The translations under genes and the position numbers were made by a program. A DNA stretch of 64,000 bases from the IMG/VR virus record IMGVR_UViG_3300033066_001253, positions 13,223 to 77,222 of that record, one strand, 5' to 3'. Under the pieces are notes generated by a model, which worked only from the letters and a program-made list of their open reading frames with translations, ran no database searches and had not been told where the DNA came from. Position 1 is the stretch's first letter. Every line of letters begins with the position of its first letter. Origin of the DNA: a virus (lineage: Duplodnaviria; Heunggongvirae; Uroviricota; Caudoviricetes). This document shows positions 30,328 to 61,695 of this stretch, piece after piece.

Positions 30328-30362
30328 TCGAGGTTTTATAAATTAAAAGTCGTATGTTTAAA
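30328..30362 (+). promoter_or_regulatory. conserved phage promoter (TCGAGG ... CGTATGTTTA)
   Basis: -33-like TCGAGG and -7-like CGTATGTTTAAA spaced about 18 nt, upstream of the ATG at 30376. Confidence 0.5.
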
Positions 30363-30375
30363 TAAATTAAGAATT

Positions 30376-30549
30376 ATGAAAGGACAATACGTAATAATAG
30401 ATCTTAGAAATATGGATTTCATGAAAGATGAAAATGGTAAAATTAACTATTATAATACAGAAGAAGAAGCATGTAATGTTTGTGGAATATATGAATTTGA
30501 GAATGCTTGGGTAATGAAATTAATTTATAACCATATAGAAGAATTATGA
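30376..30549 (+). CDS. hypothetical protein
   Basis: Track ORF 30325 (TTG) trimmed to the ATG at 30376, because the promoter motif lies in the extension. Confidence 0.35.
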   Translation: MKGQYVIIDLRNMDFMKDENGKINYYNTEEEACNVCGIYEFENAWVMKLIYNHIEEL

Positions 30550-30878
30550 AACCAGAAGATAAATTATATTCAGATATTGAAAATTCTATTATGAAATGGA
30601 GTAATGATGGAAATAAAACAGCAGGATTTCTTACTAGAAAAATCCTAAAATTAATTCCTCCTTATGTTAAAGTAACCAACAAACATATTTCAGAACAAGA
30701 TGAAATCATATTTGAATTATATACTAAATTAGAAATTTCAGAGAAAAAATTAAAAAACTTAAAGAAAAAATCATATTCTAAAGCTAAAGTAGAATCTTTA
30801 CTTCATAAAGCAACTATTGAAGCTGCTAATAATGATGGGTTTGATTTTTGGGATTTTATAGAAAAACATTTAAAATAA
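30546..30878 (+). CDS. hypothetical protein
   Basis: 110-aa ORF with ATGA overlap. Confidence 0.35.
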   Translation: MKPEDKLYSDIENSIMKWSNDGNKTAGFLTRKILKLIPPYVKVTNKHISEQDEIIFELYTKLEISEKKLKNLKKKSYSKAKVESLLHKATIEAANNDGFDFWDFIEKHLK

Positions 30879-30933
30879 TTGTCTTTGTTATTAAATTCAA
30901 ATTTCATATATTTAACTTATAAAATTGATAAAT

Positions 30934-31233
30934 ATGAGTAAATTATTATATAAGAAAAAGAAAGGTTTAAGAATTAAAAAACGTTTTTATTCTGTAACTA
31001 TTGGTGGTAATATTGGTTTATGGTTTAGTTGTAAAGATAATAAAATTAAAACTATTGAAGAATGTAGAAAAGATGGTGAAGGTTATAGTTCACATTCTAA
31101 TAAACCTATAAGAAGTATTAAAGCATTTAGGAGATTTATTAAAAATAATATAAATGATATACCTATTGGAGCTTCATTTATATTATTAAACACATGGGTA
31201 GGATATGATGTAATTTATATTAAATTTAAATAA
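30934..31233 (+). CDS. hypothetical protein
   Basis: Track ORF 30925 (TTG) trimmed to the ATG at 30934; promoter motif at 30905-30920. Confidence 0.35.
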   Translation: MSKLLYKKKKGLRIKKRFYSVTIGGNIGLWFSCKDNKIKTIEECRKDGEGYSSHSNKPIRSIKAFRRFIKNNINDIPIGASFILLNTWVGYDVIYIKFK

Positions 31234-31239
31234 AATAAT

Positions 31240-31590
31240 ATGACAAATAAAGAAATCTCAGAAAAATCAAATCCAAAAAAATTCACACGTGAATATGAGA
31301 ATATAGTAACCAAAATAAAACAAATCTGGCATTATGATTTGGAAAAATTTGGAAATGGAGCTCATAAAATAGAGACTATTTATCCAGATGGAATGGAAAC
31401 CTACAACGAAAAACAAAAAGGTTCTCATAAAATAGATGGTAAACCTAATAAACCTGTTAATTCTGAAAAATTAAAGAATGGTGATTGTGAGGATGATAGT
31501 TTGCCGTTGACGCAGAGAAGATATTGGAGTGCAGCTACAAATAAATTTGTAGGATATACTCGTGCTCGTAATTTAAATTTAATTAAATAA
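31240..31590 (+). CDS. hypothetical protein
   Basis: 116-aa ORF. Confidence 0.35.
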   Translation: MTNKEISEKSNPKKFTREYENIVTKIKQIWHYDLEKFGNGAHKIETIYPDGMETYNEKQKGSHKIDGKPNKPVNSEKLKNGDCEDDSLPLTQRRYWSAATNKFVGYTRARNLNLIK

Positions 31591-31612
31591 AAATAAATAA
31601 AAAACAAATAAA

Positions 31613-32404: not shown

Positions 32405-32410
32405 CAATTT

Positions 32411-32644
32411 ATGAAAAAAGATAAAAAACCGTTTACCAAATACTGGTTAAAAGCTAAAAAACTAGCAGAAGATAAAAATGTAGATGAAGCAGTTTCAATG
32501 TTAGAAACAATGATATGTAATTTAGCTGAATTATCTATGAAAGGTGAGAAAATGTTGGAAGATGTTGAAATTGATTTATGGAAATGTAGAGCCTGGGATA
32601 AAATCGAACACTTAGGCATACTTCCAGAATATAAAGAGATTTAA
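32411..32644 (+). CDS. hypothetical protein
   Basis: 77-aa ORF. Confidence 0.35.
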   Translation: MKKDKKPFTKYWLKAKKLAEDKNVDEAVSMLETMICNLAELSMKGEKMLEDVEIDLWKCRAWDKIEHLGILPEYKEI

Positions 32645-32683
32645 TGTCTTGGTTTATAAAATAATATTTCGTATAATTAACCT

Positions 32684-32887
32684 ATGAAAAAATTAGTAAA
32701 TCAATTACTCAAAAAAGATAAAGATTTTATCATTATAAATCCTAAAAACGAAGTTTATATTGGTTTAATAGGAGGTGAGCCTGCATTTAGTAATGACTGG
32801 AATGAAGCTAAGAAACTAAATGATCAGGAACAGATGAATAAAATTCAAAGAGGTTATTATATGAAACTTGATAAAATGGAATTATGA
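32684..32887 (+). CDS. hypothetical protein
   Basis: 67-aa ORF; promoter motif GTCTTGG ... CGTATAATTAACC upstream. Confidence 0.35.
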   Translation: MKKLVNQLLKKDKDFIIINPKNEVYIGLIGGEPAFSNDWNEAKKLNDQEQMNKIQRGYYMKLDKMEL

Positions 32888-33156
32888 AACGAGGAGAAAC
32901 AGGTAAATTAGTTTATGATTTCGATCAATCTCAACACCTAGAAATCTGTATAGAAGATAAATGGTACCGTTCAACTGCTCGTGAATTTAGAAGTTTTGAT
33001 GGAAAACGTAGAATAAATAATAACAATTATGAAGGTTCAGTATATTATTTTAAAACAAATGATAAAGTAATGTCTTTGTTATCTAAAGAAAATATCATAT
33101 ATTCACCTTCTGTTGATTATATAGAAGCAAATAAAAGAATAGGAGAAACATTTTAA
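32884..33156 (+). CDS. hypothetical protein
   Basis: 90-aa ORF. Confidence 0.35.
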   Translation: MKRGETGKLVYDFDQSQHLEICIEDKWYRSTAREFRSFDGKRRINNNNYEGSVYYFKTNDKVMSLLSKENIIYSPSVDYIEANKRIGETF

Positions 33157-33165
33157 AAATAGGTT

Positions 33166-33399: not shown

Positions 33400-33438
33400 A
33401 TGTCTTGGTTATAATAAAAAACATTAGTATATTCAATT

Positions 33439-33741: not shown

Positions 33742-33750
33742 ATAAAAATT

Positions 33751-37079: not shown

Positions 37080-37489
37080 TTTTAATTAGTTTAATATGTT
37101 TTATGATAGCAGCTCGATATAATGCTGTTATGGATGTTTTAACACATCATTTTGAGGATTCAATTTTTTATGTTGAAGGAGATAAAGAAAATACTCAATG
37201 GTATGATCCTTCTATTTCATGGAAAAATAAATATATTGGTTATGATCCTAAAAACGGAAGATTAAAATGGAATAATACTAAATTCAATTATCCTGTTCAA
37301 ATAACTGATGCTTGGCATTTGAATAAAACAAAGATGATTATATTTTTAGCTCTAAGCATTATTACATTTCCAGGCAACTTTAGTTTATTACAATTAATAG
37401 GATTATTTATTAGTTTTGGATTTGCTTGGAATATTATATTTAGTCTATTTTATAATCATATCTTAAGAAAAGATGTCTTTGTAATTTAA
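37076..37489 (+). CDS. hypothetical membrane protein
   Basis: 137 aa, multiple hydrophobic segments. Confidence 0.35.
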   Translation: MILISLICFMIAARYNAVMDVLTHHFEDSIFYVEGDKENTQWYDPSISWKNKYIGYDPKNGRLKWNNTKFNYPVQITDAWHLNKTKMIIFLALSIITFPGNFSLLQLIGLFISFGFAWNIIFSLFYNHILRKDVFVI

Positions 37490-37529
37490 GAAATAAATCG
37501 TATAGTTATATAAATTAAAAATATTAGTT

Positions 37530-38393
37530 ATGAAAGTAAAAGTATTAAAATCAAGTTTAGATACTTATTGGTATTCTGATAAAATCGGAAGAGTTTTTAA
37601 TGTTGAAAATTGTCCTGGAGAAGATTATATAGTCCAAGATATAGAACATATTGACTCAGGTTTATTAAAATCAGATTGTATTGAAGTGCCTGATGAATGG
37701 TGTGTAAAAGTAGGAAATGATGAAGATGTTAATAGAGATCATCCAGTTATAAAATATTTAAATCAAAAATATAAAAAAGAACATGATGGTTCAGCTACAT
37801 ATTATGGTGTTAAGGATAATGATTCTACTTTTACATCTACTGGATCAGGTCCATTTGGTAAATTATTAACACTAGAAGAATTTGAATTAATATTTTTAGA
37901 TAAAAAACCAGAAGACATGAAACAAGAAAATAAAAAATTAATTGGTTATAAATTAAATGGAACTGTAACAGCTCAACAAGTAGCTGATTTAATACAGTGT
38001 AGTCCTGATATTTATAAAAATGGATGTTTTTTATTATATCCAATACATTTTGATGGTGGATCCATTTGTTCTGTTAAAGGAGCAGGAAATAAATTAAAAG
38101 AATTAGGAGTTCTAGACCTTTGGTTCACTCCAGTCTACGAAGAAGAAACCAAAACAATCACCTCAGGTTCTGAAAGAATAGAAATTAAAATAACACCTGG
38201 TAAATCAATTGAGGCTCAAGGAAAAACAATAAAAATTGAGTTGTTAAAAGAAATTTATGAGGATATGGTTGATAATGTCTTTCATGAAAATAATACAGGG
38301 TGGGGAATTAAATTTCCATCAGTAAAAATAGGATGTTCAATATTCACAGCTCAAGAAATATCAGAAATAATTTCTATTTACAATGGAGAGTAG
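37530..38393 (+). CDS. hypothetical protein, paralog of 43363-44220
   Basis: 287 aa. Shares GVLDLWF ... IGC..F ... EIS.I with ORF 43363. Confidence 0.4.
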   Translation: MKVKVLKSSLDTYWYSDKIGRVFNVENCPGEDYIVQDIEHIDSGLLKSDCIEVPDEWCVKVGNDEDVNRDHPVIKYLNQKYKKEHDGSATYYGVKDNDSTFTSTGSGPFGKLLTLEEFELIFLDKKPEDMKQENKKLIGYKLNGTVTAQQVADLIQCSPDIYKNGCFLLYPIHFDGGSICSVKGAGNKLKELGVLDLWFTPVYEEETKTITSGSERIEIKITPGKSIEAQGKTIKIELLKEIYEDMVDNVFHENNTGWGIKFPSVKIGCSIFTAQEISEIISIYNGE

Positions 38394-38888: not shown

Positions 38889-39232
38889 TGTCAGAAATAC
38901 TTCATTTTATAGGTTTATGTCCAGATTCATTATCACATTTTGATTTGATGGATTTAATAGCTTTGAATTATAATCAAATTCAAATATTGAGTTTTTATAT
39001 AAGAAAATGTCTTGGTTTTTAAGTTAAAAGATCGTATGTTTATGTTATGGAAAAGCTAGAAAAAATATTATTAATAAGCCTAGGTGTTTATATAATTGGT
39101 TATTATGTAATTTTAAATACAATGTTATGAGTAGTTTAAGTAATAAGAATAATGATTTTGAGGATTTTGGTTGGTTAATAATCGTATTGATTTTAATCAC
39201 ATTAATGTTTATAAGATAAAAAAATAAAAGTT

Positions 39233-39571: not shown

Positions 39572-39626
39572 TGTCGTTGTTTATAAAATAAAATTTTGTA
39601 TATTTAAATAAATTAAAATCAAAGTT

Positions 39627-42094: not shown

Positions 42095-42130
42095 TCTTGG
42101 AAAATTAATAAAACAATCGTATGTTTAACT
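42094..42130 (+). promoter_or_regulatory. conserved phage promoter (GTCTTGG ... CGTATGTTTAACTTATAAATTAATAAA)
   Basis: Full-length copy of the recurrent motif upstream of the ATG at 42148. Confidence 0.5.
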
Positions 42131-43304: not shown

Positions 43305-43362
43305 TCTGTCTTGATTATATAAAACATAATTCATATATTTAACTTAAATAAAAATAATAAAC

Positions 43363-44220
43363 ATGAGTAAATTTAATGTAGGTGATAAAGTGAAAATTCC
43401 TAAAACCAAAAAAGGATATAATGATTACAGTTATGATTCATTTTATGATGAGATTAATGATAAAGGATATTCTAATTTAGTTATTGATAAAATTCAATCT
43501 GATGGAAGTATTAGATTAAAAGGACCTAATAATGGTTATTTAGGAATGGATGTTTTTTATGAATCAGATCTAGAACTTTATGAAGAAAGATATAAAGCAT
43601 CTGAATTAAAAAATGGAAGAATTGTTATTTTATGTCAAAATCAGGAGGAATTTAGTAAAGCTCAAACTCTATGTAATAGAGATGATTTAAAAACAAATAA
43701 TTTTCCTGTTGAATTTTATCCTTGGAATAATGATGGTGATTTTACTGATGGAGATGGGACTCATATGTTAAAATGGAATGATATTCCTCGTTCATACAAC
43801 ATGCCAACCCCAACCCACTGCATTAACTTCTCACAAATCGACTTTGAAACAGAAACTAAAACAAATAATAATATGAAATTGAAAAGATTTAAATTAGTAA
43901 AAACAGAATATGGAAAAGCTTATTTAGCATTAACTGGATTATCAAAAATTGGTGATTTTGATTTAGGTTCAAATACTTATAATATTCTTCAAAAAGCAGG
44001 AGTTCTAGATTTATGGTTTGAAGAAGTTCCTGACACAATTAAAATTCATGGTTATGAAGTTAAAAAAACAAATAATGGATTCAAAATTGGATGTAAAGCA
44101 GTCACATTTCAACAATTACAAAACTTTAGAGATTTCATGGAGATGAATGGTTTTAGTGATATTTCATTTGGTGAATATAAAGTTACAATGAAAGAAATCT
44201 CACAAATTCTAGCACTATAA
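43363..44220 (+). CDS. hypothetical protein, paralog of 37530-38393
   Basis: 285 aa. Shared GVLDLWF block. Confidence 0.4.
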   Translation: MSKFNVGDKVKIPKTKKGYNDYSYDSFYDEINDKGYSNLVIDKIQSDGSIRLKGPNNGYLGMDVFYESDLELYEERYKASELKNGRIVILCQNQEEFSKAQTLCNRDDLKTNNFPVEFYPWNNDGDFTDGDGTHMLKWNDIPRSYNMPTPTHCINFSQIDFETETKTNNNMKLKRFKLVKTEYGKAYLALTGLSKIGDFDLGSNTYNILQKAGVLDLWFEEVPDTIKIHGYEVKKTNNGFKIGCKAVTFQQLQNFRDFMEMNGFSDISFGEYKVTMKEISQILAL

Positions 44221-44438: not shown

Positions 44439-44479
44439 TCGTTGTTTAAATAAGAATTTAACGTATGTTTAAAGTATAA
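44439..44479 (+). promoter_or_regulatory. conserved phage promoter (TCGTTG ... CGTATGTTTAAAG)
   Basis: -33-like TCGTTG 44439-44444, -7-like CGTATGTTTA 44462-44471, ATG 44492. Confidence 0.5.
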
Positions 44480-44699: not shown

Positions 44700-44742
44700 T
44701 CGTTGCTCTTAAACTAATATTTCGTATGTTTAACTTATAAAT
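44700..44742 (+). promoter_or_regulatory. conserved phage promoter
   Basis: TCGTTG 44700-44705 ... CGTATGTTTAACTTATAAATTAATAAA 44723-44749 ... AAGGTTATG. Confidence 0.5.
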
Positions 44743-44758: not shown

Positions 44759-45562
44759 ATGGAAAATATTCAATTAACAAAAGATGAATTAGAAATGATT
44801 CGTCTTAAACGTGAACAAGATGAATTAGCTGCTAAACAAAAAGAAGTTGAAAAGCAAATTAAGCGTCAAAAACGAATTGATGATGAACGTAATCGAATTG
44901 AAAAATTTATTAAGGAAAAACAAACAGAAAAAGCAGTTGTTGAAGGATTCCTCAATACATTAAATAGTTTTCATATTTTACCTGTCTATGAATTAATAAC
45001 TAGAACTCATTCAAAACAATTCAAATTATATGATTGGGTTGATGGAGAAAATGATGATGTTTATTTTTTAGAAGATGTTCCATTTGATTACTATAAAATC
45101 AAACGTATTGGTTATCATTTTGAAATAGAAGCTAACTATAATTCTAGAAAGAAAGGATGGCAAACTGTATATGATTGGTTTTTAAGATACGATTACAAAA
45201 ACTACAAATCAGCTAAAACAGTTGATACTAAAATAAATGATAAAATAGAGACACTTGAATCTAAGAAATTACACGAACAAAAACAACTATCATCAAAAGA
45301 AATTGTATCTCAAATATTAACTGATAAATATCCTGAAGCAACAATAAAACATGATTCTGAATGGATATCAAACAGATGGGATAAAGACAGAGGTGGTTAT
45401 TCACAAGGATATTTTACAGTAAAATTTGAAAATGGAGTTGAATTAAAATGTATCTATAGAACTGATGGAACATATAGTTCAGAAGTAAAATATCTTTACA
45501 ATGTTATTAGTAATGAAGAATTAATTGAATTAGTTAAAAATTTACCTAAAAAGGAGAAATAA
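44759..45562 (+). CDS. hypothetical protein with N-terminal coiled coil
   Basis: 267 aa. N-terminal K/E/Q-rich helix. Confidence 0.35.
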   Translation: MENIQLTKDELEMIRLKREQDELAAKQKEVEKQIKRQKRIDDERNRIEKFIKEKQTEKAVVEGFLNTLNSFHILPVYELITRTHSKQFKLYDWVDGENDDVYFLEDVPFDYYKIKRIGYHFEIEANYNSRKKGWQTVYDWFLRYDYKNYKSAKTVDTKINDKIETLESKKLHEQKQLSSKEIVSQILTDKYPEATIKHDSEWISNRWDKDRGGYSQGYFTVKFENGVELKCIYRTDGTYSSEVKYLYNVISNEELIELVKNLPKKEK

Positions 45563-45873
45563 TTATGAAGAAGATAGAATGTTATATCAAAATTATGTTT
45601 TTACCTTATCCTAAAAACAGATGGTGGAAATCAAGATTAAATTTAATTAATCAAGGTTTAATATAAGTCGTGATTTGTAAATTAATCTAACATATATTTA
45701 CTCAAAATTAAGGTTATGAAAAAATACCAAATAATAGTTATTGGAGGTCCTGAATATCTTATAGAAGCTAAAGGATTTGAGTTTGATATTGGATTTTATA
45801 TGTTTTATGATGAAAATAAGATAATATTTTTGTATACTCCTATTAATTTAACAATAATTAAACCTCTATAATT

Positions 45874-46389: not shown

Positions 46390-46445
46390 TATATCTTGGT
46401 TTATAAATTAAATTTTCGTATAGTTATATTATAAAATTAACAAAT

Positions 46446-48104: not shown

Positions 48105-48158
48105 AAATAATCGTTGTTTATAATAAAATAAATCGTATATTAATTTAAATAATAAAAC

Positions 48159-48398: not shown

Positions 48399-48402
48399 AT
48401 TA

Positions 48403-48430
48403 GGAGAGGAGTAAAATCCTCTTCTTTGTT
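48403..48430 (+). terminator. rho-independent terminator
   Basis: GGAGAGGA-GTAAAA-TCCTCTTC hairpin followed by TTTGTTT. Confidence 0.5.
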
Positions 48431-48476
48431 TATTAAAATATTTAACTTATATTTAATCAACTTAAAAATAAATAAC

Positions 48477-48846: not shown

Positions 48847-49300
48847 CTATGAACTTTCTAAACTTAATATTATTCTTTATATATATGGGTTTTTGTACTA
48901 TTGATGTTTACTCAAAATCATATGTATTTGCTGTTATGTGGGGTTCTTTAGCTTTAATGACTTTAGCCTTTTTTATAATAGGTGAAATTAAAAACTATAT
49001 TAATAAAAAATTATAAATAAAACATTATAAAACAATTCACCTCCCAACAACTATGGGACAAATTTACAAAACTGAATAAAGTAGAACAATATGAAGTTAT
49101 GTCAGGAGCATTAGATTATATGAAGATGTATAATGATAAAACAAAGCAGTTTTGTATATTTAGAGCTATGGGTTATATGGATAGTGGAGCGGATGGATTA
49201 AATTATTACAAATTATAAACGTAATATAATTTATTATAAGCGATTGTCTTGGTAATCCATATAAATCATCATATATTTAAATAAATTAATATAAAACGTT

Positions 49301-49996: not shown

Positions 49997-50043
49997 GCGA
50001 GGTTTTATAAATTGTATTTCATATGTTTATATAAATTAAAGCA

Positions 50044-50268
50044 ATGGAAAAAATAGATTGTCATAGTTCAACTCCTAAACAAGATTTAATTGATTTTGTA
50101 AAACGTAATAAAGGTAAAATTATATCACTTCATTGGGAAGGAAACATGTATGATATTTGGGGTGATGATGATATAACTGAATATGACACAAATGTACCAG
50201 AACTTTACATACAAATATTGGAATCAATTAAAAATCATTATATACATGGTATAAAATGTATTAATTAG
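50044..50268 (+). CDS. hypothetical protein
   Basis: 74 aa. Confidence 0.35.
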   Translation: MEKIDCHSSTPKQDLIDFVKRNKGKIISLHWEGNMYDIWGDDDITEYDTNVPELYIQILESIKNHYIHGIKCIN

Positions 50269-50331
50269 ATTTTTAAAATATATTCGTTGTTTTATAAAAC
50301 TTAAATCGTATAGTTACTCAAAATTAAGGTT

Positions 50332-50986: not shown

Positions 50987-51044
50987 TCGTGGCTCTAAAA
51001 AAACTATATCGTATATTTACTTTCATAATAATAAAAATGATAAG

Positions 51045-51316: not shown

Positions 51317-51697
51317 ATGAAACTAACAAAGGAATGGTTAAAAGAAAATTGTGATAGATATCTTTATGATGTGACTGATTTTTATTGTTTTGGTAAAGGA
51401 GATCATGAATTTTATTTAAGACCGAGTGGTGGTGGAGAATATGGTTTTTATTGGGGTGTTGGTTGTCCTGAATTAGGAAGTAATTCTCAAGAAATGTATG
51501 ATTGTCAGGAAATAATTACACTCCAAGACCTAAAAATACTTAAAACAATGTGTTTAGGAAACCGAGACGATAGAGATATGTTAGTAAAAACATTATTCTT
51601 AGATTTATCAGTTGAAGAATGTCTTGATTTATATAAAATTAAATTAGATATTGAGAAACAAAGATTAAGTGAATTTGCTAAAAGTCTTGGTAAATAG
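51317..51697 (+). CDS. hypothetical protein
   Basis: 126 aa. Confidence 0.35.
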   Translation: MKLTKEWLKENCDRYLYDVTDFYCFGKGDHEFYLRPSGGGEYGFYWGVGCPELGSNSQEMYDCQEIITLQDLKILKTMCLGNRDDRDMLVKTLFLDLSVEECLDLYKIKLDIEKQRLSEFAKSLGK

Positions 51698-51741
51698 TTT
51701 AAATTAACGTATGTTTAACTTATAAATTTAAAATAAAAGTT

Positions 51742-52374: not shown

Positions 52375-52409
52375 AAACGAAGCCCTAATAAGGGCTTTCG
52401 TTGTTTTAT
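52375..52409 (+). terminator. rho-independent terminator overlapping the next promoter -33 element
   Basis: AAACGAAGCCC-TAATAA-GGGCTTTCGTT hairpin then GTTTTAT. The 3' arm contains the TCGTTG of the downstream promoter. Confidence 0.6.
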
Positions 52410-52438
52410 AAAATATATTTCGTATGTTTAGAGTATAA
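52398..52438 (+). promoter_or_regulatory. conserved phage promoter
   Basis: TCGTTG 52398-52403; CGTATGTTTA 52421-52430; ATG 52450. Confidence 0.5.
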
Positions 52439-52881: not shown

Positions 52882-52934
52882 TATCGAGGTTTTATAATTA
52901 ATAAATCATATATTTAACTTATAAATTAAATAAC

Positions 52935-53707: not shown

Positions 53708-53915
53708 AATCGTTGCTACTTAAACTAACTCCCGTATAGTTAACTCAAATAAAAAGATATGTACTCAATAAACTGTAATTATTACCAAAAACAATTCAAA
53801 TCAATTGCTTTGTTAATTCAAGATGTTATTGATTCAGGACAAGATCCAAATTATGAAATAACACACAACGGAAAGAGAACAGGTGAAATATTAAACGATT
53901 TAATACAATATTAAT

Positions 53916-54114: not shown

Positions 54115-54150
54115 TCGTTGTTATAAGTAAAACAATTCGTATAGTTATAT
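54115..54150 (+). promoter_or_regulatory. conserved phage promoter
   Basis: TCGTTG 54115-54120, 19-nt spacer, CGTATAGTTA 54138-54147, AAGGTTATG start at 54164. Confidence 0.5.
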
Positions 54151-54163: not shown

Positions 54164-54418
54164 ATGATAACAATAGATAAATTAACTCAAGTTAATGGTA
54201 ATTCATTAAATCACCCTCGTTATGTTGTTGGTTGGTGGTGTTTAGGATTTAAAACCTACGAAGAAACAATTCAAAAATGTAAAGAATTGGGTGGTAAAAA
54301 ATTTCACAATAAACAATTTGGAGGTGGTATTGTTTTTGTTTCATGGAATAAACATGAATTAATTAACCAACTTAACGAATTAATAAGAAGGAATCAAGAT
54401 ATTGTCGAGATTAATTAA
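54164..54418 (+). CDS. hypothetical protein
   Basis: 84 aa. Confidence 0.35.
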   Translation: MITIDKLTQVNGNSLNHPRYVVGWWCLGFKTYEETIQKCKELGGKKFHNKQFGGGIVFVSWNKHELINQLNELIRRNQDIVEIN

Positions 54419-54445
54419 ATTAATATTCGTATAGTTATATTATAA
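54405..54445 (+). promoter_or_regulatory. conserved phage promoter
   Basis: GTCGAGA ... CGTATAGTTATATTATAAAATTAATAATTAAGGTTATG. Confidence 0.45.
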
Positions 54446-54925: not shown

Positions 54926-54985
54926 TTATCGAGGCTCAACTAAAATAATTTCGTATAGTTATATAACTTAAAAAACATAAATAAT

Positions 54986-55366
54986 ATGGAAATTAAATTA
55001 ACACCTAAGGAATCAGAAGATTACTTCTACAATGCTTTATGTAACGGTTTAGGTTATATTAGTGGATATGGTTTAGCAGTTGATTATGATACAAAAGAAT
55101 ATCAAGCAGCTAAAAAATCATTAGGAGGATCACCATGCTACGAAGATGTGTTTATGGAAATGCTTCGAAAAGGAGGTAAATTAACATTAGTTGATGAAGA
55201 ATGTGATGGAGAATATACACGTTCAATCACATTAAAAGAAATACATGAACGAGTTCAAAAAACAGATTCTGACCACTTATTAGCTATGGTTAATGAAAAT
55301 GATGATGCAACGACAGCAGATGTTATTCTCCAAACAGTGTTTTTTGAGGAAATAATATTTGGCTAG
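54986..55366 (+). CDS. hypothetical protein
   Basis: 126 aa. Confidence 0.35.
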   Translation: MEIKLTPKESEDYFYNALCNGLGYISGYGLAVDYDTKEYQAAKKSLGGSPCYEDVFMEMLRKGGKLTLVDEECDGEYTRSITLKEIHERVQKTDSDHLLAMVNENDDATTADVILQTVFFEEIIFG

Positions 55367-55400
55367 ATTATTAATAAAACATTTCGTATAGTTACCTCAA
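55358..55400 (+). promoter_or_regulatory. conserved phage promoter
   Basis: TTGGCTAGA ... CGTATAGTTA (55385-55394) ... ATG 55411. Confidence 0.45.
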
Positions 55401-55410
55401 ATAAAGAGAT

Positions 55411-55698
55411 ATGAAAAATATTAAAACATACAACCAAGTCAAAGTAGGTGATATAGCAATGGAACACCCCCATGCAGGTGGGTTCTATGATCATGAACTA
55501 GGTAAAATAGTATGGAAAGGTACTGCAGATGAATTGAGAAAATCAAAATGGGTTGATTTAATAATGGATTGGGAAACCGAAAAAGAATATATTGATGACT
55601 ATGATTTAGTAATAGTTAAGATGGAAGGTGATTTCCCTGATAATATATTATTCAGTTATGATAACGATCCTTGTAGTTGTGTAGTATTTGAAAAATAA
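55411..55698 (+). CDS. hypothetical protein
   Basis: 95 aa. Confidence 0.35.
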   Translation: MKNIKTYNQVKVGDIAMEHPHAGGFYDHELGKIVWKGTADELRKSKWVDLIMDWETEKEYIDDYDLVIVKMEGDFPDNILFSYDNDPCSCVVFEK

Positions 55699-55756
55699 TT
55701 TGGCTAGGTTTAATAAATAATAATTCGTATAGTTAAATATATTAAAAATTAAGGTT

Positions 55757-56053
55757 ATGTCAAAATATAAGGAATTAAGGTTAAATCCACCCAAATTAAC
55801 AATTAAAAAGGATGCTCGTGAAGTAATTTTTACAACAGTATCATGCATGTGTGATAACATTCACTATATAACATTTAAAAAGAATGAAAGTGGTGATTTT
55901 AAAATGGATGGTGGAGGATTTGCACTAAGCAATTGGCAAATGAAACACCCTAAACACGATATTGAATGGGAAGCAGATGCAGGAGAATGGCAAGGTGTAA
56001 TAGCTATGATAAATTCAGGTACTAAAGCTGTATCAGAGGTAAAAAGCAGATAA
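55757..56053 (+). CDS. hypothetical protein
   Basis: 98 aa. Confidence 0.35.
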   Translation: MSKYKELRLNPPKLTIKKDAREVIFTTVSCMCDNIHYITFKKNESGDFKMDGGGFALSNWQMKHPKHDIEWEADAGEWQGVIAMINSGTKAVSEVKSR

Positions 56054-56059
56054 TATAAG

Positions 56060-56100
56060 TCGAGGTTTAATAAATAACAATTCGTATAGTTAAATATATT
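56060..56100 (+). promoter_or_regulatory. conserved phage promoter
   Basis: TCGAGG 56060-56065 ... CGTATAGTTA 56083-56092 ... AAAGGTTATG at 56114. Near-identical to the copy at 55700-55756. Confidence 0.5.
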
Positions 56101-56113
56101 AAAAATAAAGGTT

Positions 56114-56410
56114 ATGTCTAAAACAAAACAACCAAAATTCATTCAAGTATCACCTAACGAAGTTAAATTCGAATACAAGGGATATAAGTTCTTATTAATT
56201 GAACAAGACAGAGGTGTGTACTCGGCAGGTAGAGCAGTCCAGTTATACCAAACAGATGGATTGGATAAAAAACATATTAAGGAAATGGGTTGGACTAAAA
56301 ATGATAATTATCGTGGGATGGAATCATCTGATGCTCATTATAAATCAAGATTAACAACAATGGATGGTTGTAAGAGTATAGCCCAAGATTATTTAGATAA
56401 ACTGTTATAA
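56114..56410 (+). CDS. hypothetical protein
   Basis: 98 aa. Confidence 0.35.
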   Translation: MSKTKQPKFIQVSPNEVKFEYKGYKFLLIEQDRGVYSAGRAVQLYQTDGLDKKHIKEMGWTKNDNYRGMESSDAHYKSRLTTMDGCKSIAQDYLDKLL

Positions 56411-56463
56411 TATAAGTCGAGGTTTATAATAAATCGATTCGTATGTTTACCAAAATTAAGGAT

Positions 56464-56748
56464 ATGATAAAATTAACAAAATTATTTAAACAACACAATG
56501 GGGGGGAATTTGGTTTAGGTTGTGCTCAAATCCATTCAAACCATTATGAATGTTCATTAGAACACATATTAAATATGGTTAATGAATTAAAAAAAGATTT
56601 CCCAAATATTAAGGATGAAGATATTAAAATTCAAAAATATGGTGGAAACCGAATAAAAGGAATAACATTTGTTGAAGTATTTTTTACTACTAAAGTAAAA
56701 ATACCTGAAGGTTATCAAGAAATAACTCAATTAGAATATATTTTATAA
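56464..56748 (+). CDS. hypothetical protein
   Basis: Track ORF 56443 trimmed: its first ATG lies inside the CGTATGTTTACC promoter element. Real start AAGGATATG at 56464. Confidence 0.35.
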   Translation: MIKLTKLFKQHNGGEFGLGCAQIHSNHYECSLEHILNMVNELKKDFPNIKDEDIKIQKYGGNRIKGITFVEVFFTTKVKIPEGYQEITQLEYIL

Positions 56749-56821
56749 ATTAATAGGGTATAATGTAAATAGTGGTAAGACATAAACATGGTTCCGGTAA
56801 GGGATGATGGTTTACAAAATG

Positions 56822-56882
56822 GATGTGGTGACACAAGCCGAGGTAGGTTCGAATCCTACCATACCTTATTATTTTTTAAATC
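56822..56882 (+). ncRNA. tRNA-like element (canonical T-arm GTAGG-TTCGAAT-CCTAC, upstream cloverleaf not resolved)
   Basis: GGTAGGTTCGAATCCTACC at 56853-56871 is a textbook T-stem-loop inside an about 190-nt ORF-free gap. I could not pair a complete acceptor stem by eye. Confidence 0.3.
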
Positions 56883-56965
56883 TGAAGCAGAGAAATTAAT
56901 AATAATCCAGGTCGTGGTTACTCAACAATCAAATCGTATAATTACATTATAATAAAACAAATAAT

Positions 56966-57148
56966 ATGGTATCTCAATCCCAACATATATTACTAAAAAT
57001 AGATCAATTATTACAAAATAAAGAATTTATCAGGGAAACAGAATTGGATGATATGGAACCCAACCAACGATTTATATTTATGTGTAAAAATTATAATGAT
57101 GAAGATGTGGATCAAATGTATTATGAGGTGTTTGGGTTAGAGTATTAA
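56966..57148 (+). CDS. hypothetical protein
   Basis: 60 aa. Confidence 0.3.
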   Translation: MVSQSQHILLKIDQLLQNKEFIRETELDDMEPNQRFIFMCKNYNDEDVDQMYYEVFGLEY

Positions 57149-57190
57149 TCGAGGCTAATCAAATAACGTTTCGTATGTTTAACTTATAAG
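57149..57190 (+). promoter_or_regulatory. conserved phage promoter
   Basis: TCGAGG 57149-57154 ... CGTATGTTTAACTTATAAGATTAATAA ... AAGGTTATG at 57217. Confidence 0.5.
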
Positions 57191-57399: not shown

Positions 57400-57961
57400 A
57401 GTATAGCAAACCATAGTGATGTTAGGTGGGTGTGGTTTTGTGTAAGGTTGTGTGTCGGAGTTCTTAAAGAGTGTATATGGCCTGGGGTGAGGTGTGGGGA
57501 ACGGGTAGGGTCGGGAAATGAAACATTTCATGGCGCTGTTCCTCCTCCTCGTATTCGACAAATATATACTTTCTATTCCATGCACCGCATCCCCCCTATT
57601 CCATGCATCGCATCTTCTTATTTCGTGGTTATTTAGTTTAATTTTCGTATAGTTAATCAACTTAAAAATAAATAGTTATGATGGAATTTAAATTTTACAC
57701 ATGGTTCTACACTAGTGAAATTACTGGATTAGAATATCAGTTTGGAATGAATTAATAAACACCCTAATGACAAATTTAGAACCACACCCACTCTATTTCA
57801 CATCTGTAAATCCAGGTGAGGTGTTTTGGAAATGTTATGGGATCGAAATTATAGTTGTGTGTTTGAATTAAATATAGTTTCTATAAATAATCGTTGTTAT
57901 TGAGATATAGATTCGTATGTTTAAAATAAGAAATTAATTATAAACGTTAATATAAGTGGTT

Positions 57962-58165: not shown

Positions 58166-58354
58166 TTCGTTGCTCAACTAAATAAAATTCGTATAGTTAA
58201 GCAATAAAGAAATTTAACAAAACGTTGTTTGAAATATTAGTCTCGACCTCCACATCAAAATAAAGACAAATTAAGAGTCGTTGCCTATTAAAAAACAAAT
58301 CGTATAGTTAAAGTATAAATAAAATAAATAATTAACAATTAAAAAATCAAGGTT

Positions 58355-58735: not shown

Positions 58736-58745
58736 TAACAAATGA

Positions 58746-58779: not shown

Positions 58780-58850
58780 AAAAAATATCGAGGTTATAAG
58801 TATTAGGTTTCGTATAGTTATATTATAATAAAAATTAATAACACAACATT

Positions 58851-59030: not shown

Positions 59031-59215
59031 TAATTAAACGTAGTGTTGATACAGATAATAGTGGAGTTAAATGGTGGGCTGTATCTCATTCTCAAGATGG
59101 TACACCTGATCAAATATCATGTTTTAATTGGTTTCGTTCTAAAGCCGAAGCAGATAAATATTATTCTACATTACCAGGTGCCAAGGAGGTAGTTAGTAAG
59201 AGTCGTTGTTTATAG
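59027..59215 (+). CDS. hypothetical protein
   Basis: 62 aa. Confidence 0.3.
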   Translation: MIIKRSVDTDNSGVKWWAVSHSQDGTPDQISCFNWFRSKAEADKYYSTLPGAKEVVSKSRCL

Positions 59216-59277
59216 ATTTATGTTTCGTATAGTTAAACATAATAAGAAATTAATATAAATAATTAAAATATAATATT

Positions 59278-59559
59278 ATGAAATATCAAATCAAAAGTAT
59301 ATTTGAACAAATTGCAGAGCAAGTATTCAAAATGAGTGATGTAGTTAAAGCAAAACAATTCATAGCTGAATTTGTAGTTGAAAAAGGTATTAATGATAAA
59401 GACAAACAACTGATATTAAATAATATCCAGGGTTGTAAAAATATAGTTGCCCTCCAACGTTATATTTGTAACTCATTGTTAAAATATGAGGGTATGAGTG
59501 TAGGTAAACCAGGTAAGGTTGAGGTGAGTGAACCAAGTGTTGATGTAGTGGTTGAATAA
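59278..59559 (+). CDS. hypothetical protein
   Basis: 93 aa. Confidence 0.35.
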   Translation: MKYQIKSIFEQIAEQVFKMSDVVKAKQFIAEFVVEKGINDKDKQLILNNIQGCKNIVALQRYICNSLLKYEGMSVGKPGKVEVSEPSVDVVVE

Positions 59560-59642
59560 TTATAATGTCTTTGTTTTATTAAATATGTTTCGTATATTTA
59601 ACTTATAAGATTAATAATTAATAATAATTAAAAATAAATAAC

Positions 59643-59810
59643 ATGAACGATTTTGAAAAAATAAAACAACATTTATCTGAATTGGTAAAATTAGTTGGTA
59701 AAAACACTGAAAATGCTGATAATATTGATTTATATGATATGTGTGATGGTTTAGAACAAATGTTAGATATATTTGAAAGTATTGAAGGTTTTGAAAAATA
59801 TGACGAATAA
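59643..59810 (+). CDS. hypothetical small protein
   Basis: 55-aa ORF below threshold; promoter CGTATATTTAACTTATAAGATTAATAA upstream. Its stop abuts copy 1 of the 24-bp direct repeat. Confidence 0.3.
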   Translation: MNDFEKIKQHLSELVKLVGKNTENADNIDLYDMCDGLEQMLDIFESIEGFEKYDE

Positions 59811-59905
59811 TTTCATGGTGTAGTTAGTTGAATAGTTATAATATCGTTGCTACTTAAAATAACTCTCGTATATTTAACTCAAATAAATAATTAAAATATA
59901 ATAAT

Positions 59906-60169
59906 ATGAAAAATTTAATTCCAATAACAGTTGAAGGTTTGAAACAATTAAATAAATTATTGAATGATTATTATTTAAAAGATTTAAATGAAAGATTATT
60001 CAATGATGTAGATACAGATTGTTTGAATCATTGTATAAGTAGTGATATAAATGGAAATAAAGTATTTAATGAATATGAACGTTTAATTACGAATAAATTC
60101 ATTCTTGAACAAATAGATATAATAAATTGGAATTATTGTAATTTAAGACAATTAGAATTGACTTTATAG
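59906..60169 (+). CDS. hypothetical protein flanked by 24-bp direct repeats
   Basis: 87 aa. Confidence 0.35.
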   Translation: MKNLIPITVEGLKQLNKLLNDYYLKDLNERLFNDVDTDCLNHCISSDINGNKVFNEYERLITNKFILEQIDIINWNYCNLRQLELTL

Positions 60170-60779
60170 AAATTTCATGGTGTAGTTAGTTGAACAAGAG
60201 TAGGCGTTCCGACAAGTCGGGATGCCTTTCTCTTTCCTTTTCTTTCTTCCCGACATGTCTTCTAGAAGAAGAAGTCCCTAGGACTTGACGCGTACGGCGG
60301 TATACCGTATGGGGGGAGTATTGTGTGGGATACCACGCGCGCTGATGTCCGTCGGGCGGGGCGCCGGTGTTCCGGAAGGCCCCGACGACCTAACAACGTA
60401 CGTATAACATATAAGGATCGATTTGTATATCCCTATATCTAACCCAAACCACTCAATAACCCAAACCGAACAACCACTCCCAAACCCCTTTAAAAAAATA
60501 AGTTTGTCTTGGTTCTTCTAAAAAATTATCGTATGTTTCCACTATAGGGTTTTTGGAATAATAATCGCAAATCTCAAAAAGTAAGAGAATGACAAAAATA
60601 TAGTTTATAAAAAAGAATATATACAAATATAAATAATAAATAACTATGGAAAACAAAAACCATATTTTTATATAGATGGAGAAACAGGTAAACAAAAATA
60701 TTTACTTGGTGCTTGGAGAGTTGGAGTACATGAAAATTGGACAATAGGTGAAATTGAATTAAATGACTAAATATAAATT

Positions 60780-60986
60780 ATGAATTGGATATCAGTTACA
60801 AATAAATTACCAACATGTTGGTCTCAACATGGGAAAGACTATGGAAGTGGTTATTTACTTGGTTATACTAAATATAATGAAGTAGTAATAACTCAATTAT
60901 GGAATAATAAAGATTGGGAAAATGAAGATGAGGAAGATGATTATATCACTCATTGGATGAATTTACCTTTACCACCACAAACATAA
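60780..60986 (+). CDS. hypothetical protein
   Basis: 68 aa. Confidence 0.35.
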   Translation: MNWISVTNKLPTCWSQHGKDYGSGYLLGYTKYNEVVITQLWNNKDWENEDEEDDYITHWMNLPLPPQT

Positions 60987-61035
60987 AACTTCGAACCTGT
61001 TCCATATTTATATCCGAACCTAAAGCCTCAATATT

Positions 61036-61695
61036 TTGGATCGTATATATACATTCTCAGATCTGGAAAATATAAATAGGTTTATATCATCCCTCAAACG
61101 TAAAGCCAAAAAATATAATATTAGGCTTGAACTCAACAACGATAAATTTGTTACTATTTCAGATGAAATAAAATGTAGCGGTTATTTTGAGGAAAAATTC
61201 AAACATCATCCCGGCTTGTTAACTACTGCTACAGGTAAACCTATTAATATGTGGTTACCTGTTTTGGTACATGAATCCTGTCATATGGATCAATGGGAGG
61301 AAAAAACACCTATATGGAAAGAATATCAATCTTCTGATACTGCTATTATTGATATGTGGTTAGCTGGAAAACGCGTAAATAGTGAGAAAGTATATAGAGC
61401 TTTAGATATAAGTAGGGATATGGAGTTAGATTGTGAACGTAGGTCAGTTAATAAAATAATTAAGTTTAATTTACCCATTGATATAACTGAATATATACAA
61501 AAAGCCAACTGTTATATATTTTTTTATAATTATCTTAAGATAAGTAAGAAATGGAGTTTACCTGGTAATAGTCCTTATAATAATCCAAATATATATAAGA
61601 AAGTGAGTGGAGATTGGTATGATGATTATAGTGTAACTCCTAAAGAAATCGATCGTTTATTTAAAAAATATAAAATAGGATATGATAAAATCTAA
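61036..61695 (+). CDS. hypothetical HExxH-motif protein (possible zinc metallopeptidase)
   Basis: Contains VLVHESCHMDQWEE (HExxH + E). Track start is TTG at 61036; first in-frame ATG is at 61249 and a CGTATATATACA promoter-like element lies at 61040-61051, so the true start is uncertain. Confidence 0.35.
   Translation: MDRIYTFSDLENINRFISSLKRKAKKYNIRLELNNDKFVTISDEIKCSGYFEEKFKHHPGLLTTATGKPINMWLPVLVHESCHMDQWEEKTPIWKEYQSSDTAIIDMWLAGKRVNSEKVYRALDISRDMELDCERRSVNKIIKFNLPIDITEYIQKANCYIFFYNYLKISKKWSLPGNSPYNNPNIYKKVSGDWYDDYSVTPKEIDRLFKKYKIGYDKI

Follow-up and report, generated by a model that had tools for sequence, protein, structure and literature searches.

The window analysed here is a 64,000-nt stretch of phage DNA (Caudoviricetes; positions 13,223 to 77,222 of IMG/VR record IMGVR_UViG_3300033066_001253). 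It carries a short repeated element, here called the cassette, in 49 copies on the + strand and one on the - strand, most of them in an array of small genes between 25.6 and 61 kb. The reading we favour, with a probability of about 0.7, is that the cassettes are strong early promoters read by the host sigma-A holoenzyme, each fused to a leader and a start codon, and that they also act as joints for the shuffling of genes. The observations behind it are the repeat itself, its geometry and its placement, the conservation of two separate boxes, the presence of a comparable array in the Flavobacterium phage vB_FspM_immuto (hereafter immuto), and the position of strain breakpoints at cassettes.

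Sequence, geometry and placement of the cassettes

A preliminary description of this DNA had reported a rigid repeated cassette, and the repetition is confirmed. The string CGTATAGTTA occurs 21 times with at most one mismatch, where 3.3 matches are expected, and 20 of these lie on the + strand between 32.6 and 59.9 kb; CGTATGTTTAAC, with at most two mismatches, is found 27 times against 5.4 expected. Alignment of the 30 exact CGTATnnTTA sites brought out a second conserved box upstream at a fixed distance. A weight matrix of 38 columns, refined iteratively and applied with a score cut-off of 10-12, recovers the 49 sites on the + strand and the single site on the - strand, compared with 0.02-0.04 per strand in first-order Markov simulations of the dinucleotide content of the window.

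Positions are numbered so that the TA of the downstream (-7) box is T-12 A-11; cassette coordinates span -37 to -5, and C-14 serves as the anchor. The consensus is TCKWKG-N16-TCGTATrkTTA with a single invariant spacing. From the C of the upstream box to the C of CGTAT there are 22 nt in 49/49 copies, and a search for copies with another box spacing found none. In the upstream box, T-37 is present in 45 of the 49 copies and C-36 in all of them; -35 is G (29) or T (19), -34 is T (38) or A (11), -33 is G (28) or T (21), and G-32 is found in 43. The -7 core is preceded by T-15 (44 copies), C-14 (42) and G-13 (37). In the core itself, T-12, A-11 and T-10 are each present in all 49 copies, -9 is A (37) or G (12), -8 is mostly T (32) or G (15), T-7 is again invariant (49), T-6 occurs in 45, and -5 is A in 48 and C in one. 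The main forms of the -7 box are TATATTTA (16 copies), TATAGTTA (15) and TATGTTTA (11). A TTG-like box is thereby placed at -34 to -32, followed by a 19-nt spacer and TA at -12/-11. TTG proper is found with a 19-nt spacer in 21/49 copies, with a 20-nt spacer in 11/49 and not at all in 17/49, the position of the box being constant throughout.

Mean pairwise identity between copies is 0.71 in the -33 box and 0.83 in the -7 box, 0.51 in the spacer, and 0.36 and 0.44 in the upstream and downstream flanks (chance, 0.31). Two conserved boxes joined by a spacer of fixed length and variable sequence are the pattern to be expected from recognition by an RNA polymerase (RNAP). The cassette body has no evident RNA structure (mean fold z-score +0.37, below -2 in only 2/49) and no Rfam match, and neither terminal inverted repeats nor target duplications were found at the cassettes. 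As the preliminary description had held, the cassette is not an Escherichia coli sigma-70 promoter. That reading was ruled out for lack of enrichment: TTGACA-N16-18-TATAAT has 121 matches in 44-62 kb, with 125.7 expected, and none coincides with a cassette.

The cassettes are about 35-65 nt long and recur every 500-700 nt or so. Nearly every gap of the array had been said to hold one; of the 45 + strand gaps that measure 35 nt or more in the interval 25.6-61.1 kb, 39 do. This interval contains 45 cassettes and the first 25.6 kb contain four. One cassette per small gene had been claimed, which is too many: the 86 genes of 25.6-61.1 kb share 45 cassettes and the 46 genes of 44-61 kb share 32, or about one per two genes. 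The array had also been thought to start at about 25.6 kb, and further copies were found at 20132, 23219, 25512 and 25614; the 3-19 kb glycan operon, said to lack the motif, is nearly free of it but holds one copy (6976-7008). Every cassette is oriented like its gene (49 + and 1 -). A second regulatory regime that drives the small genes is supported as far as sequence analysis allows.

Flavobacterial TAnnTTTG elements lie at -12 to -5, and transcription starts 4-5 nt further down (PMC6847099, PMC9723704); on this basis, anchor +14 is the predicted +1. In most copies, the first ATG that opens an ORF (open reading frame) follows 24-54 nt past the anchor. In four genes (67-137 aa) it stands at anchor +13/14, and in none at +15 to +23. 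Four ATGs at the predicted +1, where one is expected (Poisson p = 0.02), give modest and independent backing to the promoter register. These four genes would be leaderless and the others would have leaders of about 10-40 nt; for comparison, the host has a median leader length of 24 nt and a leaderless fraction of 5.5% among its mRNAs (PMC9723704).

The start codons led by cassettes favour A at -12 to -10 (0.83-0.86), A at -6/-5, R at -3 and T at -1, and the A-run recalls the flavobacterial TAAAA motif (PMC2483708). The constant start-codon element of the preliminary description did not survive: AAGGTTATG is found at only 9/42 cassette-led starts, and GTTATG at 17/42, compared with 5/88 other genes. 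The context TTAAGGTTATG or RGTTATG (G-3, T-2, T-1) is seen, for example, at 44759, 50332, 54463, 55757 and 57217, and GTTATG also occurs in the cassettes of immuto. The other genes of the window show the preference for A-3 reported for Bacteroidetes (PMC6847099). An AAGG before the ATG was considered as a Shine-Dalgarno sequence and judged unlikely, as only 2 nt lie between it and the ATG and the ribosomes of Bacteroidetes make no use of such sites (PMC6847099). That some predicted ORFs had been artificially extended through the motif is borne out by at least two (30325 and 48426), which start inside it, and the cassettes fix the true start codons of many small ORFs.

A strong hairpin with a T-run lies just upstream of 6/49 cassettes (anchors 28954, 30351, 42118, 48446, 52421 and 58811). 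The hairpin placed at 52392-52403 in the preliminary description is really at 52379-52398, where it adjoins the -33 box. The single-gene transcription units proposed there are an overstatement: as only these six have a terminator, most units are probably not insulated, and read-through should build up along the array.

The copies are listed below with their matrix scores. Ten of the twelve -7 coordinates given in the preliminary description are exact; 58307-58316 is really 58301-58310, and 59590-59601 is really 59591-59602.

6976-7008, + strand: TCGTGG/TATATTTA, score 25.4; ATG 7013 at predicted +1 (putatively leaderless); within glycan operon
20132-20164, + strand: TCTTGG/TATATTTA, 26.6; precedes ORF 20179-20358
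23219-23251, + strand: weaker copy, GCTTGT/TATATTTA, 24.0; ATG 23256 at predicted +1
25512-25544, + strand: weak and doubtful intragenic copy, TCGTGA/TATATTCA, 20.5
25614-25646, + strand: TCGTTG/TATATTTA, 39.0; precedes ORF 25674
27371-27403, + strand: TCTTTG/TATATTTA, 37.4; precedes ORF 27422
28931-28963, + strand: weak copy, TCATTG/TATATTTA, 17.5; precedes RNA ligase gene 28978-30177; terminator hairpin just upstream
30328-30360, + strand: TCGAGG/TATGTTTA, 37.6; precedes ORF 30376; terminator hairpin upstream
30882-30914, + strand: cassette, 37.2; precedes ORF 30934
32647-32679, + strand: TCTTGG/TATAATTA, 40.1; ATG 32684 at predicted +1 (putatively leaderless)
33073-33105, + strand: cassette, 32.3; within 3' end of ORF 32884-33156; next ATG 33166
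33403-33435, + strand: cassette, 28.7; ATG 33439 at predicted -1/+1 (putatively leaderless)
37476-37508, + strand: cassette, 31.9; precedes ORF 37530-38393
39010-39042, + strand: cassette, 33.6; followed by short ORFs only
39574-39606, + strand: cassette, 38.8; precedes ORF 39627
42095-42127, + strand: cassette, 32.4; precedes ORF 42148; terminator hairpin upstream
43309-43341, + strand: cassette, 33.3; precedes ORF 43363-44220
44439-44471, + strand: cassette, 26.0; precedes ORF 44492
44700-44732, + strand: cassette, 39.1; precedes ORF 44759-45562
45668-45700, + strand: cassette, 25.8; precedes ORF 45716
46394-46426, + strand: cassette, 36.8; precedes 552-aa ORF 46446-48104
48111-48143, + strand: cassette, 28.6; precedes ORF 48159
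48423-48455, + strand: cassette, 21.8; precedes ORF 48477; terminator hairpin 48402-48425; strain breakpoint 48474
49247-49279, + strand: cassette, 27.1; precedes ORF 49301
49997-50029, + strand: cassette, 29.9; precedes ORF 50044; left partner of the cassette-to-cassette deletion in the strain contig
50284-50316, + strand: cassette, 32.3; precedes ORF 50332; right partner of the deletion with 49997-50029 (chimera L026:2612)
50987-51019, + strand: cassette, 35.3; precedes ORF 51045
51685-51717, + strand: cassette, 28.8; precedes ORF 51742
52398-52430, + strand: cassette, 33.1; precedes ORF 52450; terminator hairpin 52379-52398 adjoins -33 box
52884-52916, + strand: cassette, 35.0; precedes ORF 52935
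53710-53742, + strand: cassette, 30.2; precedes ORF 53759; strain breakpoint 53702
54115-54147, + strand: cassette, 33.2; precedes ORF 54164; strain breakpoint 54174
54405-54437, + strand: cassette, 33.5; precedes ORF 54463
54929-54961, + strand: cassette, 32.9; precedes ORF 54986; strain breakpoint 54974
55362-55394, + strand: GCTAGA/TATAGTTA, 33.8; precedes ORF 55411
55703-55735, + strand: cassette, 36.6; precedes ORF 55757
56060-56092, + strand: cassette, 40.3; precedes ORF 56114
56417-56449, + strand: cassette, 34.9; precedes ORF 56464
56912-56944, + strand: cassette, 31.0; precedes ORF 56966
57149-57181, + strand: cassette, 39.7; precedes ORF 57217; strain breakpoint 57144
57623-57655, + strand: cassette, 34.7; followed by a short ORF only; strain breakpoint 57623
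57891-57923, + strand: cassette, 29.0; precedes ORF 57962
58167-58199, + strand: cassette, 31.7; no ORF before next cassette (about 95 nt)
58278-58310, + strand: cassette, 34.4; precedes ORF 58355
58788-58820, + strand: cassette, 30.5; precedes ORF 58851; strong terminator hairpin upstream
59203-59235, + strand: cassette, 37.1; precedes ORF 59278; extra 270-nt unit inserted here in the strain contig
59568-59600, + strand: cassette, 38.4; precedes ORF 59643 (missing in the strain contig)
59844-59876, + strand: cassette, 37.1; precedes ORF 59906 (missing in the strain contig)
60507-60539, + strand: last + strand cassette, TATGTTTC, the sole copy with C at -5, 34.4; follows GC-rich island
63067-63099, - strand: sole - strand copy, TCGTGG/TATATTTA, 24.2; 39 nt before the ATG of - strand ORF 62615-63037

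Two of these cassettes have no useful ORF behind them. At 58167-58277, the next cassette (58278) follows after about 95 nt; at 60507-60780, no ORF of at least 35 aa lies within 120 nt of the cassette, and the roughly 240 nt after 60539 hold only ORFs of up to 30 aa. Both cassettes could drive small RNAs or micro-peptides. A region of about 1 kb (26296-27370), around and after the tRNA-Met gene (26419-26494), is ORF-poor and cassette-free and is among the few long gaps without a cassette.

Host promoters and the array of phage immuto

As a host standard, the 450 nt upstream of the 16S start were taken from 78 Bacteroidota 16S rRNA loci, fetched via the CF319a target, and searched for TTG-N18-20-TAnnTT. 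The 115 fits, a sample of one promoter class selected by this pattern, have T-6 at a frequency of 0.94, G-5 at 0.90 (A 0.03), C-4 at 0.87, A-3 at 0.85, T-15 at 0.63, T-14 at 0.59 (C 0.14) and C-36 at 0.08; their spacers measure 19 nt (58%), 20 nt (30%) or 18 nt (11%). In A/T-rich regions of the host loci, searched with no requirement for TTG, 169 TAnnTTTG stand against 27 TAnnTTTA. In the rRNA operons, promoters stand in tandem in twos or threes, at intervals of about 100-150 nt, and lie 120-440 nt ahead of the 16S start. Their consensus is very uniform (TTG-N19/20-TAyhTTTGCA, with an A-run at -24 to -19 and C at the position numbered +1), and the set is a usable host reference.

The cassettes reproduce the modal geometry of these host sites and their A-rich spacer. 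With the Bacteroidetes primary-sigma promoter, whose consensus is summarised as TTTG/TAnnTTTG in PMC6847099 and PMC9723704 (also Bayley 2000 and Chen 2007, as cited there), they have in common T-12, A-11 and T-7 (49/49), T-6 (45/49), a TTG-like box centred on -33, a 19-nt spacer (the modal length in the host) that is A/T-rich and contains an A-run, and predicted leader lengths like those of the host, some genes being putatively leaderless. The match to the sigma-A consensus claimed in the preliminary description stands for the -33/-7 geometry and gives way at single bases, which are weighed further below.

In protein searches, the closest relatives of the window are Flavobacterium phages, and the nearest cultured one is immuto (NC_055915), a 160-kb phage with T4-like gp20 and gp23 genes that infects Flavobacterium sp. 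LMO8. Eleven window ORFs have homologues in immuto, and for ten the gene order is conserved: window 96-8356 corresponds to immuto 48.0-53.0 kb, window 22.4-25.1 kb to immuto 58.8-62.0 kb, and window 32.9-33.2 kb to immuto 62.2-62.5 kb. This synteny points to a T4-like myovirus background for the window phage. The array (25.6-61 kb) occupies the place of a run of small hypothetical genes in immuto (61-77 kb), with which it shares almost no genes. As syntenic runs of small genes with almost none in common, the two mark the array, on sequence grounds, as a hyperplastic region in the T4-type sense. Megablast of 44-60 kb against GenBank phages gave no match. In a 70%-identical relative (L027), the genes are tightly packed and cassettes are absent, so that it was set aside as uninformative.

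The matrix built on the window scores poorly on immuto, and the immuto array was recognised by reading its intergenic DNA. At the syntenic position, there are 26 copies of aGTTGc-N-TCnTATATTTAGG, which lead to the start codon in the form aGTTGc-N-TTCnTATATTTAGGTATCAATAATTAAAAC...ATG. They have TTG at -35 to -33, an invariant 20-nt spacer, T-15 (0.86), C-14 (0.90) and A-5 in all copies. Common to both cassettes are TTG, the spacing class, T-15, C-14, TAT at -12 to -10, T-7/T-6 and A-5, while flanks and leaders are lineage-specific. Of the extra conserved CG pointed out in the preliminary description, C-14 is thus common to immuto and G-13 is specific to the window lineage.

In immuto, the cassette occurs only in the ORFan array and before a few non-structural genes. 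The structural genes of this phage, including those for portal, terminase, sheath, tube and tape measure, carry a separate motif, TATTTATAA, which stands 12-25 nt ahead of the ATG and lacks an upstream box. A fuller form, (c/a)TATTTATAA(a/t)AA, is found, for example, at 90.66, 95.17, 119.0, 120.6, 147.0, 149.2 and 150.8 kb. The motif is a candidate for the late-promoter consensus of this phage group and is absent from the annotation of the record. Several non-structural genes of immuto have a hairpin between the boxes (GGCTTG...CAAGCC-TTTTTT-cgTATATTTA). Such GC-rich hairpins (aaaGGCTTGtttattCAAGCCttttttcgTATATTTAgg), which follow the -33 TTG and precede the -7 box, lie at 22.06, 25.03, 25.48 and 46.5 kb of the immuto segment L022 and at about 4.4 kb of its segment L024 (primase). 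Terminator and promoter overlap there, and a stem-loop between the boxes is the sub-type of promoter-early stem-loop (PeSL) described for RB49 and phi1 (PMC2839356).

A further version of the cassette, CCCCTTGaaaa...CCGTTCTTATATTTAAG, occurs in six copies on a 185-kb IMG/VR contig with 41% G+C (L060). The contig was found by scanning IMG/VR for TTG-N15-TTCnTATATTTA, a pattern that imposes the core, so it is no independent evidence for C-14 and A-5. A cassette of the window type (TCTTTG...TCATATATTTA) followed by a tandem TAAACAAT repeat lies at 2036-2120 of IMG/VR contig 3300033121_001524 (L089; 38 kb, 25.6% G+C). This contig comes from the same metagenome as the near-identical contig 3300033121_001557 and may belong to the same phage genome or to that of a sister phage.

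The window has 26% G+C and nearly all of its genes on the + strand. It encodes one tRNA-Met, a PD-(D/E)XK nuclease that is 41.6% identical to its immuto counterpart, glycosyltransferases, a thiamine pyrophosphate (TPP) enzyme and an RNA ligase. Of the 103 ORFs between 20 and 64 kb, 87 have no Pfam match; the Pfam and PHROG matches comprise a DksA/TraR zinc finger, Phage_TreK, an SLT lysozyme, a phosphoesterase and a few domains of unknown function. At the end of the array lies a GC-rich island of about 290 nt (60195-60480; e.g. CGCGCGCTGATGTCCGTCGGGCGGGGCGCCGGTGTTCCGGAAGGCCCCGACGACC), which is 99.6% conserved in the strain contig described below. No + strand ORF of at least 50 aa is found in 60170-60780, the island has no Rfam match at E <= 1, and folding gives it z-scores of -1.9 on the + strand and -1.1 on the - strand. 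A structured RNA, an origin and a packaging site are among its possible roles. Similar GC-rich, ORF-poor patches are present within the immuto array, at 66.3-67.6 and 74.2-74.5 kb.

Strain mosaicism at the cassettes

The window was compared with IMG/VR contig 3300033075_001500 (L026; also L010 and L019), which is 95-99.8% identical to it from 47.2 kb on, yet mosaic. Ten of the 16 internal alignment boundaries fall within -35 to +60 of an anchor, a zone that makes up 16% of the region (binomial p = 3.4e-5), and the remaining boundaries lie mostly at gene ends. Window 50056-50288, comprising one gene, is missing in the strain contig, and the cassette at the junction (L026:2612) is chimeric: its -33 half comes from copy 50020, its -7 half and leader from copy 50307. 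This is a direct footprint of crossing-over within the cassette spacer. Past the cassette at 48446, the strain has 308 nt and the window 530 nt. An extra unit of 270 nt is inserted in the strain at 59255-59283, window 59527-60165 (two cassettes, two genes) is missing, and a stretch of 546 nt stands in place of window 54975-57143 (five cassettes). The cassettes thus appear to mark points of gene gain and loss between close strains as well, a role that the preliminary description had not noticed.

Partners for such exchanges exist within the window. Seventeen of the 49 cassettes have another copy to which at least 35 nt are at least 90% identical, which suffices for phage recombinases, and sub-families of cassettes have leader segments in common (e.g. 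ACTTATAAATTAATAA). Copies 55726 and 56083 share 65 nt at 90% identity or more, and the proteins encoded downstream of them are unrelated. Paralogues among the 130 + strand ORFs amount to two pairs, neither in the dense array: 20298-21191/21687-21944 (62% over 76 aa) and 41405-41713/41727-42059 (29% over 110 aa). With so few, tandem gene duplication was ruled out as the source of the repeat.

Competing readings and known systems

In the preferred reading, the phage is a large flavobacterial one with a distant relationship to T4, and host RNAP with its primary sigma factor (Bacteroidetes sigma-A) would bind the cassettes, contacting the TTG-like box near -33 (TCKWKG, -37 to -32) and the -7 box (T-15 C-14 G-13 T-12 A-11 T-10 r k T-7 T-6 A-5), which are bridged by the fixed 19-nt A/T-rich spacer. 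Transcription would start 4-5 nt past the -7 box. The outcome would be many short transcription units, each with a short A-rich leader, for small genes of unknown function in a hyperplastic region. C-36, C-14, G-13, T-10 and A-5 may tune strength or selectivity, like the extra consensus of T4 early promoters. As substrates of homologous recombination, the cassettes would allow the intervening genes to be deleted, inserted or swapped.

Several points weigh against this reading. Promoter activity, the polymerase used, the start site and an early timing are predictions from sequence, the strain comparison concerns one strain pair, and the host standard covers one promoter class selected by pattern. 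At -5, the cassettes have A in 48/49 copies where 90% of the 115 host rRNA sites have G, and F. johnsoniae promoters are described as having T-8 and G-5 'nearly invariant' and G at -9 'virtually zero' (PMC6847099). G at -8 (15 copies) or -9 (12 copies), rare in hosts, occurs in 27/49 cassettes. Seventeen of the 49 upstream boxes have no TTG (TCGAGG, TCGTGG, GCTAG), C-36 is invariant here and present in 8% of host sites, C-14 (T in the host) and G-13 also depart, and the spacer length is constant in the cassettes and variable in the host. A canonical TTG-N-TAnnTTTG is found in the intergenic DNA of neither phage; the four matches in the window are intragenic. These departures could mean a reader other than the unmodified host holoenzyme, and a sigma factor or RNAP-modifying enzyme may lie beyond the window, which is part of a genome. 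For want of G-5, the cassettes fall outside the family of consensus sigma-A promoters, and the claim is that they would work like its members.

The same departures speak for a phage-specific promoter class, read by host RNAP only once it has been altered by a phage factor, with C-36, C-14 and A-5 as the discriminating bases. The factor could be a virion-injected modifier like Alt of T4, an activator that binds the TC...G box and replaces the contact of sigma region 4 (MotA/AsiA-like), the DksA/TraR-like protein whose gene lies just upstream of the array, or a sigma factor that the phage encodes outside the window. The departures fall on strongly conserved positions, C-14 and A-5 are common to the otherwise different immuto cassette, the boxes without TTG keep TC and G-32, and canonical G-5 promoters are wanting between the genes of both phages. 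The DksA/TraR zinc-finger ORF (24178-24483), a candidate RNAP modulator at the cassettes, is homologous to immuto gp165 ('DnaK suppressor protein') and stands at the head of the array in both phages. As the -33 element of F. johnsoniae is weak, a rigid upstream box is also unusual (PMC6847099). However, naive host RNAP needs some promoter at time zero, and the cassettes are the only abundant class before ORFans of a typically early kind. Pfam and PHROG scans of the 103 ORFs between 20 and 64 kb found no sigma factor, RNAP subunit, MotA, AsiA or ADP-ribosyltransferase, and the annotation of the complete immuto genome contains no MotA, AsiA, sigma, ADP-ribosyltransferase or phage RNAP. Box position, 19-nt spacing and A-tract equal the modal geometry of the host, and T4 early promoters, which also have an extra consensus and a non-canonical -35, are still read by unmodified RNAP (PMC2988021). 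A phage-specific class is the main rival of the preferred reading, but unlikely.

It is similarly doubtful that the phage keeps its promoters distinct by combining host geometry with A-5, C-14 and C-36 where the host is most constrained. If it does, a phage factor could silence or down-rank the G-5 promoters of the host while the phage promoters fire. This factor could be a virion-delivered RNAP modifier, the DksA/TraR-like protein or a binder of sigma region 1.2 or 4. The arrangement would be a Bacteroidetes counterpart of T4 Alt or of sigma appropriation, and the role of G-5 in sigma-A would be directly testable.

A recombination or mobility repeat, spread by duplication and gene conversion and resembling a promoter incidentally or secondarily, would account for the clustered breakpoints, the chimeric cassette, the 17/49 copies with a closely matching partner and the sub-families with common leader segments. 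Homogenisation alone should, however, produce even identity, whereas identity peaks in the two boxes, at promoter positions, and drops almost to the chance level in the flanks. The copies are strict in their orientation and in their distance to the ATG, the ends bear no inverted repeats or target duplications, and three phage lineages keep one core in different flanks. In the T4-type precedent, moreover, the cassettes are proven promoters that also recombine (PMC2839356). This reading is very improbable.

No more can be said for a motif that acts at the RNA level in long read-through transcripts, as a processing site, translational operator or terminator-associated element. Most cassettes have no upstream terminator and are probably also transcribed from upstream, and the RGTTATG context is enriched at the genes they lead. 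The cassette is nevertheless devoid of secondary structure and of Rfam matches, and its two-part conservation around a fixed spacer of variable sequence is typical of the recognition of DNA by RNAP. In addition, the four ATGs that stand 4-5 nt past the box leave no room for an upstream RNA signal unless transcription starts there.

The T4 late motif is TATAAATA, which TATATTTA superficially resembles. It is nonetheless just as improbable that the cassettes are late promoters like those read with gp55 in T4, or that they serve an RNAP, single-subunit or multisubunit, of the phage itself. T4-type late promoters have no upstream box, whereas that of the cassette is as conserved as its -7 box, and no phage RNAP was found in the scans of the 103 ORFs or in the immuto annotation. 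The late-promoter reading was ruled out by the distinct motif of immuto, whose structural genes carry TATTTATAA and whose cassette is limited to the ORFan array and a few non-structural genes.

Among known systems, the promoter-early stem-loops of T4-type phages such as RB49, phi1, T4/PST and KVP40/nt-1, coliphages and vibriophages among them, come closest (Arbiol et al. 2010, PMC2839356; Comeau et al. 2014, PMC4122927). They number about 50 per genome, stand before ORFans in hyperplastic regions and contain indel junctions (PMC2839356, PMC4122927). The window cassettes resemble them in their copy number of about 50, in an early promoter of host primary-sigma type (a predicted activity here) that runs to the start codon, in their concentration before the ORFans of a hyperplastic region, in the T4-like background (via the gp20/gp23-type genes of immuto), and in the indel and replacement junctions of close relatives that lie in cassettes (10/16 here, from one strain pair). 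Unlike PeSLs, which have sigma-70 -35/-10 promoters, they are of the Bacteroidetes -33/-7 type, have a stem-loop at 6/49 copies only (immuto has several between the boxes), and have an A-rich leader with RGTT before the ATG in place of a Shine-Dalgarno site. The stem-loop keeps them outside the PeSLs in the strict sense. Promoter and terminator activity and mini-circles have been demonstrated experimentally for PeSLs, and the cassettes are known from sequence alone.

The 'uber' early promoters of T4 combine UP, -35, TGn and -10 elements with an extra consensus (Hinton 2010, PMC2988021). Like them, the cassettes are numerous, follow a rigid consensus longer than that of the host, are thought to out-compete host promoters after infection, and have conserved bases outside the boxes, T-15 C-14 G-13 lying where the E. 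coli TGn lies. They differ in the type of sigma and in that the near-invariant G-5 of the host is replaced by A, whereas T4 keeps a perfect -10. In comparison with T4 middle promoters, neither a MotA-like activator nor an AsiA-like co-activator was found among the 103 ORFs or in the immuto annotation.

In SPO1- and Twort-like phages, the host-takeover and terminal-repeat modules consist of dense, very small genes, nearly each with its own strong early promoter; these promoters are of the Gram-positive sigma-A type and are followed by strong Shine-Dalgarno sites. A Kayvirus transcriptome study (PMC7698491) reportedly pertains to these modules. The window array is alike in its dense runs of small genes with promoters of their own, and one small ORF within 20-64 kb matches Pfam Phage_TreK, the terminal-repeat protein of Twort-like Staphylococcus phages (E = 1.9e-11), a hint of a possible correspondence between the array and a terminal-repeat or host-takeover module.

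No earlier account of such Bacteroidetes-type phage arrays, that of immuto included, was found within the limited literature searched. The transcription signals of Bacteroidota are quite different, and phage gene regulation in these bacteria has barely been studied. The copies of the window (about 50) and of immuto (26) form a natural library of probably very strong promoter and leader variants for Flavobacteriia, for which expression tools are scarce. Their uniform A-5 and C-14 offer a handle on the function of the G of TAnnTTTG in the sigma-A holoenzyme and on the separation of phage and host transcription. The cassette model of genome plasticity, known from T4-like phages that infect Proteobacteria and cyanobacteria, would be extended to Bacteroidota phages. 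Arrays of this kind have been described before, and that the early promoters of a phage mimic host signals would not surprise a specialist. New are the setting in Bacteroidota phages with promoters of the -33/-7 type, the evidence for cassette-mediated shuffling there, and the consistent departure at -5 and -14 in two divergent phages.

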